Shown here: piece by piece, positions 48,562-49,669 of the stretch
Layout of the letters: each line of letters opens with the position of its first letter
Numbering within the stretch: the stretch's first letter is position 1
Assembly: GCF_022045235.1 (NCBI RefSeq)
Contig: NW_027266264.1
Coordinates: forward strand, 67,022,001-67,086,000
Reading direction: 5' to 3'
Source: Haliotis cracherodii
Lineage: Eukaryota
DNA length: 64,000 nucleotides
Notes under the pieces: model-generated
What the model was told of the DNA's origin: nothing
The model's database searches: none
What the model saw: the letters and a program-made list of their open reading frames with translations, nothing else
Program-made: the position numbers and the translations under genes

Positions 48562-49669
48562 ATGTCGAAACGGTTGAATGACAAGACACGAAGCGACATG
48601 AGTGGCCAAGGAAGCAGTGGAGATGGGAACGGTGACATAACTGCTGAACTGTGGGGTGAAGTGTACGACTTGCTGTGTTTAAAGATGAAGACCGACGATG
48701 CGTACGCCAAGTTACGTGCGAAGGGCGACAACCTGATGTGCGAACAGATACGTTCAAAGATGAGGAAGCTGACTGAACCCGAGAAAGGCACATCGAAGAA
48801 GACGATAAAGAAGATCCAGAAGAAAAAGACAAGCAAACCCACAGTCGTTGTGATCCCCACAGCAGCAGCAACACCCACCACCACCACCACCACCACCACA
48901 GCGCCAGTCCCCACCACCACCACCACAGAAGCAACAGCAATAACGGCTGCAGCGACAACAGACATCGAAACGATGGGGACATCCTTTTTGAAACCTGCAA
49001 CGCCTGCAAAAAGACGATCACGGAAGAAATTATCTCTGAAGATCTCTCCTCAAGAACAGCTGTAAGTACCCTGCTCTTCTTTGTCTCAGTCATTCTTGAT
49101 GTGATTCATATTCATGACCTATTCCTATGATAAATGGACTCTGTCCTATGATTGACAGGACCCCTGATGTCAGTTCAGCCCAGTCCGTGCTAGAACAGTG
49201 GTGGGAACAAACCCCTCGGGAGCCCACCTATTCACCGAATGCCCCTGCTGTGACGATGGCGACGGGTGACCGTGATGATCATGAAGCGCTCAAGCTGGCC
49301 ACTCTCCCTTCCATGGATCTGGACACGCTCCCCGTGCTTGAGGCTTCTTGGTCACCAGCATCCCCAGAAGATGTTCATGTCTACTCCTCAGGTACGCCCC
49401 TGGTTTGCGACGATGATGATGATGATGTTGATGACAACGTTGACCTGGATCCTTATGGAGAAGCTCAACTCACTCCCCTACAACGCGGATGTCGTGTTTG
49501 CCGACACAACAACATGCTCAGATACATCAGTTGCAACAGCGGGCAAGTGATGTGTCATGTCTGTGGTCTGGAGCTCATAGACTGTACTTGTAGTATGTTG
49601 ACCTATGACAGCATAATGACACATGATGACATGCCTATCACATCTGCTGAGGATCACATCTTATGGTGA
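48562..49669 (+). CDS. Two-exon putative regulatory protein (48562-49061 + 49159-49669, ~336 aa) with basic/Thr-rich N-part, LxCxD-acidic motif and C4 zinc finger
   Basis: Donor CT|GTAAGT at 49061/49062 and acceptor TTGACAG|G at 49158/49159 join the two listed ORFs in frame. Contains LVCDDDDDD then GCRVC-x17-CHVC. Confidence 0.65.

Follow-up and report, generated by a model that had tools for sequence, protein, structure and literature searches.

A candidate zinc-domain gene family of abalones, alternatively spliced and carried by a non-autonomous Maverick-type element

The gene described here (gene X), located in a 64,000-nucleotide stretch of the Haliotis cracherodii genome (contig NW_027266264.1; the whole stretch is called the window), appears from its sequence to represent a new, abalone-restricted family of zinc-domain genes that resides in a non-autonomous Maverick and possesses a splice switch. 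A first-pass annotation had likened its product to adenovirus E1A and papillomavirus E7. That likeness is, as far as the present comparisons go, superficial, because the supposed retinoblastoma (Rb)-binding motif is weak and is not conserved.

Coding exon 1 of gene X (48562 to 49061, plus strand; 500 nt) contains 166 whole codons and ends in phase 2. It encodes a Lys-rich patch, a Thr/Ala low-complexity run and a basic patch, KRRSRKK, at 49009 to 49029, and the N-terminus is predicted to be helical. Intron 1 (49062 to 49158, plus strand; 97 nt, GT-AG, phase 2, with GTAAGT...ACAG ends) is closed by stops in all three frames, and its removal leads into exon 2 of the long isoform (49159 to 49669, plus strand) in the frame of the second open reading frame (ORF), yielding a joined protein of 336 amino acids. 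Frame, stops and product thus bear out the earlier proposal that this intron fuses two ORFs that had been listed separately. The product of exon 2 consists, in order, of an acidic, Ser/Thr-Pro-rich disordered part, LVCDD with an Asp run, a Cys/His domain and an HIL tail. Gene X lies directly downstream of the family B polymerase (PolB), and an AATAAA at 50123 to 50128 (plus strand) is a candidate for its poly(A) signal.

The junction was also found in read data, where the first-pass annotation had advised looking for it, as well as in RefSeq models. The read evidence comes from four runs of four studies, guessed to be RNA and none recorded as RNA, in which the contigs pool many copies from other animals. 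A contig of run X3 carries the exact joint of 49061 to 49159, with 28 letters on its short side. Run X1 has an 88-nt variant of the intron, in which the acceptor is 9 nt upstream (49150 region) and the residues IDR are added. The end of exon 1 was visible in 49 of 75 abalone protein sequences, all of them automated RefSeq models; 42 continued as predicted (TPD in 39 and IPD in 3), 6 carried the extra IDR of the 88-nt intron, and 1 continued otherwise. A divergent relative, represented by the genomic contig L001, has a 104-nt phase-2 GT-AG intron after the basic patch, at the position of intron 1. Unspliced contigs from the same four RNA-like runs also span both introns of gene X. The in-frame intron, the joint in run X3, the RefSeq junctions and the phase-2 intron of L001 together indicate that gene X is a real spliced gene, with junction evidence that comes from pooled or other copies rather than from the window copy itself.

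The earlier model of one hidden spliced gene was correct as far as it went, but it was incomplete, since a second, alternative GT-AG intron (intron 2; 49392 to 49745, plus strand; 354 nt) removes both motif and finger. When intron 2 is spliced out, the protein loses the LxCxD motif, the acidic run and all of the Cys domain, and becomes a 247-amino-acid form that ends in SSGRP (stop at 49754 to 49756). Joints across intron 2 were present in runs X1 and X10, and run X3 contained a 15-nt loose end at the acceptor whose sequence matches the upstream exon. All eight RefSeq long/short pairs, which were chosen by isoform label or neighbouring accession, diverge at the intron-2 donor. The 75 sequences comprised 30 close long forms, 24 short forms ending in SSGRP or SSGRS, 14 divergent finger-bearing forms and 7 others; one further sequence, P0045, was left out of this tally as spurious. 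Past the long-form stop the second half of the Cys domain is repeated in tandem (49700 to 49767, plus strand; 76%); this duplicate resembles the C-terminus of other copies (CFRE type) and contains the intron-2 acceptor. The acceptor is kept in this downstream duplicate and absent from the coding copy, and in CFRE-type copies it lies inside finger-coding sequence; the splice site thus appears to have outlived a rearrangement. Survival of the splice site through duplication is a hint, not proof, that both isoforms of gene X matter. Evidence of intron 2 was confined to the close clade, and exon 2 of L001 contains no donor of the intron-2 type (AG|GT[AG]).

The most strongly held part of the protein is the Cys/His-rich domain (49469 to 49591, plus strand), in which LTPLQ is followed by C-x2-C-x-H-x8-C-x6-C-H-x-C-x6-C-x-C. 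Its Cys spacings are 2, 10, 6, 2, 6 and 1, and the two CxxC pairs are 17 residues apart. Seven Cys and two His are near-invariant, each occurring in 36 to 38 of 38 rows, and the HIL tail is found in 38 proteins. Such a pattern suggests that the domain probably binds zinc. The arrangement previously described as GCRVC-x17-CHVC is therefore present with regard to both CxxC pairs and the 17-residue gap, but the domain has three further Cys; and the resemblance of GCRVC to the GCRSC of E1A did not hold up, the G before the first Cys occurring in only 14 of the 38 finger rows.

Kinship with E1A conserved region 3 (CR3) or with E7 was not recovered. Searches of Pfam, of PDB sequences and, with HMMER, of 1.84 billion representatives gave no match to E1A or E7, nor did a search of BFVD folds with a low-confidence model. 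Polintons are relatives of adenoviruses, and the order of motif, acidic run and CxxC pairs in gene X is that of the viral proteins; true homology to E1A CR2-CR3 or to E7 would be in keeping with both. The spacing between the CxxC pairs is 13 in E1A and 29 in E7, against 17 in gene X, where an extra invariant Cys lies inside the pairs and two more follow them. Taken with the empty searches, this makes common descent very improbable.

The domain had no recognisable counterpart elsewhere. HMMER over the 1.84 billion representatives returned nine matches, eight of them to the Haliotis family and one spurious; the sequence dropped as spurious, P0045, is a Pseudomonas repeat protein (E 2.5e-6). No homologue outside Haliotis emerged from the Pfam, word-index, HMMER, PDB sequence or Atlas searches. 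Against PDB sequences, nothing better than antibody chains, Ikaros, sigma factors and similar entries came up, all at E>0.02, and the best ESM Atlas value for the domain, 0.80, fell below the lead threshold, with no usable match for P0052. When exon 2 and the family profiles were compared with viral_contigs, 18 pattern matches were obtained and none was confirmed. There was no match in phage records and nothing under E 0.019 in PHROGs. Two AlphaFold2 models were of low confidence (pLDDT 48 and 53), and fold searches with these weak models matched nothing.

The one lead to a known fold was Pfam Sina_RING (PF21362), which aligned over model positions 1 to 32 of 35, the window domain giving E 0.92, P0016 5.4 and one of seven homologue domains 0.38. 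The Cys spacing of the domain resembles that of the SINA RING over these 32 model positions; a degenerate SINA/SIAH-type RING would make the long form a ubiquitin-ligase-like adaptor, suiting the RING-less single-BIR inhibitor-of-apoptosis (IAP) genes nearby. However, the leads, which arose in 3 of 14 queries, scored 8 to 11 bits against a cut-off of 29.3, and the other six of the seven homologue domains had no Sina match. At the position of the RING His, Gln is found in 38 of 38 rows; extra conserved His residues lie elsewhere, and the last Cys pair is C-x-C. In fold searches with the weak models, no RING appeared at E<=1e-3. Membership in the SINA/SIAH RING family, judged by the C3HC4 ligand set and the Pfam cut-off, found no support in the score or in the Gln that replaces His, and a degenerate RING with a ligase-like adaptor role is considered unlikely.

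All named homologues of gene X come from Haliotis (H. cracherodii, H. rufescens, H. rubra and H. asinina), and RefSeq proteins of H. cracherodii form clusters of 37 and 13. The nearest homologue is 97% identical over the C-terminal 76 amino acids; L001, on a contig of 1.4 kb and 37% GC, is 56% identical to the window copy over the domain. Conservation in the four species centres on the Cys/His domain and not on LxCxD. A profile of the N-terminus of the divergent clade finds P0040 (E 1.2e-9) and not the window-type N-terminus (E 0.2 to 1.1). Confinement of the family to Haliotis would also be expected if gene X were an abalone orphan gene that the element had captured and now carries as near-neutral cargo, with intron 2 a product of cryptic splicing and copy number a reflection only of the spread of the element. 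Its introns are host-like and were not reported for genes of intact vertebrate Mavericks (PMC8097293). Some copies (P0002, P0034 and P0035) have lost ligands or are truncated, and the polymerase region of the window element is split. Nevertheless, the Cys/His positions and the tail are held across clades at about 50 to 60% domain identity while the flanks diverge, intron 1 is kept in L001, and part of the promoter cassette of the element lies upstream of gene X; mere cargo is thus an unlikely account.

The reading under which gene X had first drawn attention, that of an Rb-binding inducer of S phase, depended on the sequence LVCDDDDDD. This LxCxD-like motif with its Asp run is indeed present at 49400 to 49426 (plus strand), and it varies among copies. 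The expectation that it would be conserved among homologues was largely disappointed. LxCxE occurred in 0 of 75 sequences. Among the 30 close long forms, LxCxD was found in 14, MxCxD in 15 and TxCxD in 1, so that L is replaced by M or T in 16 of 30, and contigs of runs X7 and X10 have Thr at the L codon of the motif. All 14 divergent finger-bearing forms lack an LxCxD/E-type motif upstream of the finger and have an acidic-aromatic stretch in place of the region. In P0053, P0054, P0056 and L001 (940 to 1000) the replacement is a helix-like stretch, DWW..DY..LMEDI, a candidate activation or docking motif of the divergent clade. Since [LI]xCx[DE] arose in 15.6% of 20,000 shuffles of the residues of the protein (a chance of 0.16), the motif alone does not rise above chance.

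Several observations do speak for a long form that would bind the host Rb pocket via a non-canonical [LM]xCxD and the acidic run and push the cell into S phase, in which the stem-loop genes would be expressed while the IAPs prevented apoptosis. Every one of the 30 close long forms has the C and the fifth-position D, and all but one (29 of 30) have L or M at position 1, an agreement that is not independent among close copies, which are recent relatives. The motif is followed by an acidic stretch of the kind described as raising affinity (bioRxiv 2022.06.10.495386), and in HCMV pp71 an LxCxD described as conserved and examined by mutagenesis is reported to be needed for Rb degradation (PMC2636798; PMC10868460). 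As this case illustrates, an Rb-directed motif can have D in the place of E; pp71 is itself unrelated to gene X, in which motif position 1 varies and divergent relatives lack the motif. Three genes of the element have 3' ends of an S-phase type, and Oncoid genes together with IAPs are known from this class of element (PMC8502044). On the other side, the published affinity determinants are acidic residues at -1 to -3, a hydrophobic residue at +2/+3 and, on the C-terminal side, residues that are acidic or phosphorylated (bioRxiv 2022.06.10.495386). Of these, only the acidic run is general among the close long forms; none of the 30 is acidic at -1 to -3, and 3 of 30 have the hydrophobic residue at +2/+3. 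A CK2 site was found in 0 of 30 within 15 residues after the motif and in the window copy not within 25. The CR1 pattern, (DEN)(LIMV)xx(LM)(FY), was absent from 42 sequences, including the long forms, and from the finger-bearing divergent forms, and was seen only in two degenerate relatives, P0044 and P0049. To judge from these sequence comparisons, Rb is probably not the partner of gene X. Motif-driven binding of Rb is unlikely, and the S-phase scenario built on it is given the same small, though not negligible, chance.

Genes with such features have been described in Polintons and adintoviruses as Oncoids, defined by LxCxE, a CK2 site, an optional CR1 and paired CxxC (Starrett et al. 2021; PMC8502044). 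The same paper reports IAP and Bcl2 homologues in these elements and places Oncoid genes typically upstream of PolB (PMC8502044). An Oncoid accompanied by IAPs, the idea of the first-pass annotation, is thus a published class. Like the Oncoids of that account, gene X belongs to the accessory genes of an element of the Polinton class, has paired CxxC, shares the element with IAP genes and is recognised by short motifs only (PMC8502044). Unlike them, it has no LxCxE, CK2 site or CR1, and it lies downstream and not upstream of PolB (PMC8502044). It is also spliced, and the stem 'splic' does not occur in the main text of PMC8502044. Because paired CxxC next to the motif is the only one of the defining features that it shares, gene X should not be annotated as an Oncoid, an E1A or an E7, although it may act as an early regulator all the same.

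The element that carries gene X (41494 to 52703; 11,210 bp) begins with AGTAGT and ends with ACTTCT. Its left terminal inverted repeat (41494 to 42072; 579 nt) and right arm (52143 to 52703; 561 nt) are 95.5% identical, and it is flanked by a 6-bp target-site duplication, AGTATA (41488 to 41493, plus strand, and 52704 to 52709). Long inverted repeats, AG/AGT ends and a 6-bp target duplication are the terminal features of Mavericks/Polintons; the right end departs from (ACT)2 at one position. The insertion lies in a tandem array of host cytochrome P450 genes, within one of its units, and in the two other units the sequences that flank the element join with an overlap of exactly 6 bp (9320 to 9325 and 25507 to 25512). 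The array consists of tandem units of about 16 kb, each with a cytochrome P450 first exon (Pfam p450; 9781, 25968 and 53164) and several satellite arrays, and the ATG of the third P450 copy follows the element at a distance of about 460 nt. Within the inverted repeats there are 18-nt and 39-nt subrepeats (41523 to 41750 and 52449 to 52674); the motifs CCAAGATGGCG and CCGGAA of the 39-nt subrepeats resemble YY1 and ETS sites.

Besides gene X, the element contains a family B polymerase region of three ORFs, two single-BIR genes, a zinc-knuckle gene and a small Cys ORF. The polymerase region (43882 to 48078, plus strand) matches Pfam DNA_pol_B_2 (PF03175) at E 1.3e-28 in its last piece only, which provides the protein-primed family B polymerase of a Maverick/Polinton; the first two ORFs would belong to the same polymerase. 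The polymerase piece had no match in viral_contigs. The long frames of the element are taken up by other genes and include no recognisable integrase, ATPase, protease or capsid, and the element thus seems to be a non-autonomous or deleted derivative. Judging by its clean 6-bp duplication and 95.5% identical repeats, it is a recent insertion of a non-autonomous Maverick that has retained accessory genes. It resembles the animal Mavericks/Polintons described in PMC8097293 in its (AGT)2-type end, 6-bp duplication, long inverted repeats and protein-primed PolB. It is shorter, at 11.2 kb compared to 12.7 to 24.6 kb for the intact vertebrate elements, and differs from the Mavericks of that account in its intron-bearing gene and three histone-type 3' ends (PMC8097293). 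Since the intact vertebrate Mavericks are reported there as intronless, a gene with two introns and alternative splicing is a departure (PMC8097293). Within the limited literature coverage, no title on Mavericks in abalone or on spliced Polinton accessory genes described gene X or its element.

Two IAP-type genes and a set of histone-type cassettes had been noted near gene X, and Pfam BIR matches and three Rfam Histone3 stem-loops confirm both. BIR gene 1 (43031 to 43483, minus strand) is followed by a histone stem-loop at 42930 to 42975 (minus strand); BIR gene 2 (50420 to 50932, plus strand), 51% identical to it over 77 amino acids, has no stem-loop. The zinc-knuckle (CCHC) gene (51455 to 52057, plus strand) is followed by a stem-loop at 52141 to 52186 (plus strand), and the small Cys-containing ORF of 80 amino acids (42160 to 42402, minus strand) by one at 42029 to 42074 (minus strand). 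All three stem-loops score above the gathering threshold, each stands behind a non-histone gene and is followed by a purine-rich element, and two of the three are at the inner edge of the inverted repeats. These three genes have a common upstream cassette with four to five CCAAT boxes and a TATA-like site 57 to 65 nt before the ATG. The cassette is full in the stem-loop genes, and only part of it is found upstream of gene X (48143 to 48280, plus strand; 84% to 51175 to 51312). Histone stem-loops on three non-histone genes are probably the most surprising feature of the element; no title on Polintons with histone-type 3' ends was found in the limited literature coverage.

Some smaller features of these genes were also recorded. 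Between the promoter cassette and the stem-loop at 42080 to 42402 (minus strand) there are two overlapping Cys-containing ORFs in different frames (80 and 67 amino acids), which may be one broken gene. The zinc-knuckle gene (51455 to 52057) contains an internal repeat of 84 nt as well as a basic/acidic tail, and its positions 51935 to 51990 resemble 45475 to 45530 in the polymerase region (79%). Its protein carries a canonical LYCPE, which is not counted as an Rb motif, since the Cys appears, from the sequence, to close a CCHC-type pattern.

The nuclear-type architecture attributed to gene X, with basic patches, an acidic disordered part and a Cys-rich tail in a virus-like element, stands. We propose that gene X may be an accessory nuclear zinc-domain regulator of a short, capsid-less Maverick, with a splice switch that would follow the logic of E1A and not its ancestry, a reading that we regard as evenly poised between right and wrong. 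The basic patches of exon 1 would serve nuclear import, the Cys/His domain would bind zinc and dock a host nuclear partner, and the acidic-aromatic disordered part would act as an activation or recruiting region. On this view the long form would do the regulating, its simplest targets being the element's CCAAT-cassette genes or host chromatin or cell-cycle state, and the short form, having the same N-terminus without the effector domain, would be inert or would compete with the long form. In the simplest circuit, a regulator expressed by the poly(A) route (gene X) would act on genes that use the histone route.

Adenovirus E1A offers the closest parallel. Like gene X, the E1A 289R/243R pair is described as a disordered acidic protein from which a Cys domain is removed by alternative splicing (PMC2999850; bioRxiv 2021.05.14.444182). 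In the published account, 243R loses CR3 by splicing while the Rb motif stays in the short form (PMC2999850). The E1A short form thus keeps CR2 and the C-terminus, whereas that of gene X loses motif, finger and tail together. Moreover, gene X has no detected sequence similarity to E1A, a different Cys pattern and no second (E2F-type) Rb motif, and comparison of folds using the weak models found no similarity. The splice switch of gene X is best seen as convergent with the 13S/12S splicing of E1A. The E1A/E1B-like logic put forward by the first-pass annotation retains the IAPs and the histone 3' ends and gains the splice that removes a probable zinc domain, but it finds no support in a conserved Rb motif or in kinship with E1A or E7.

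A fuller version of that logic would be a cell-cycle-coupled circuit, in which a polyadenylated, alternatively spliced regulator engages a pocket protein or another cell-cycle factor while an IAP, the zinc-knuckle protein and the small Cys protein come from mRNAs that SLBP and U7 process in the manner of replication-dependent histones, and so arise only in S phase or oocytes. Contact of the long form with its partner would be made either by the non-canonical [LM]xCxD or by a zinc fold of a new kind, and the short form would switch the circuit off. Histone stem-loop processing is described as linked to the cell cycle in mammals and not in Drosophila (PMC13525598). We consider the full circuit improbable. 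If it were true, a transposon would hold a convergent E1A/E1B-like circuit, and non-histone genes would be using histone 3' processing.

For the annotation of such elements, gene X illustrates that Oncoid calls made from motifs alone can fail a simple check of homologues. Our preferred reading, that of an accessory regulator with a splice switch, would have a broader consequence: if the switch is functional, small germline Mavericks would regulate themselves by an isoform logic known so far from adenovirus early genes. For the abalones themselves, gene X would represent a new, genus-specific zinc domain in a multi-copy element of farmed and endangered species.
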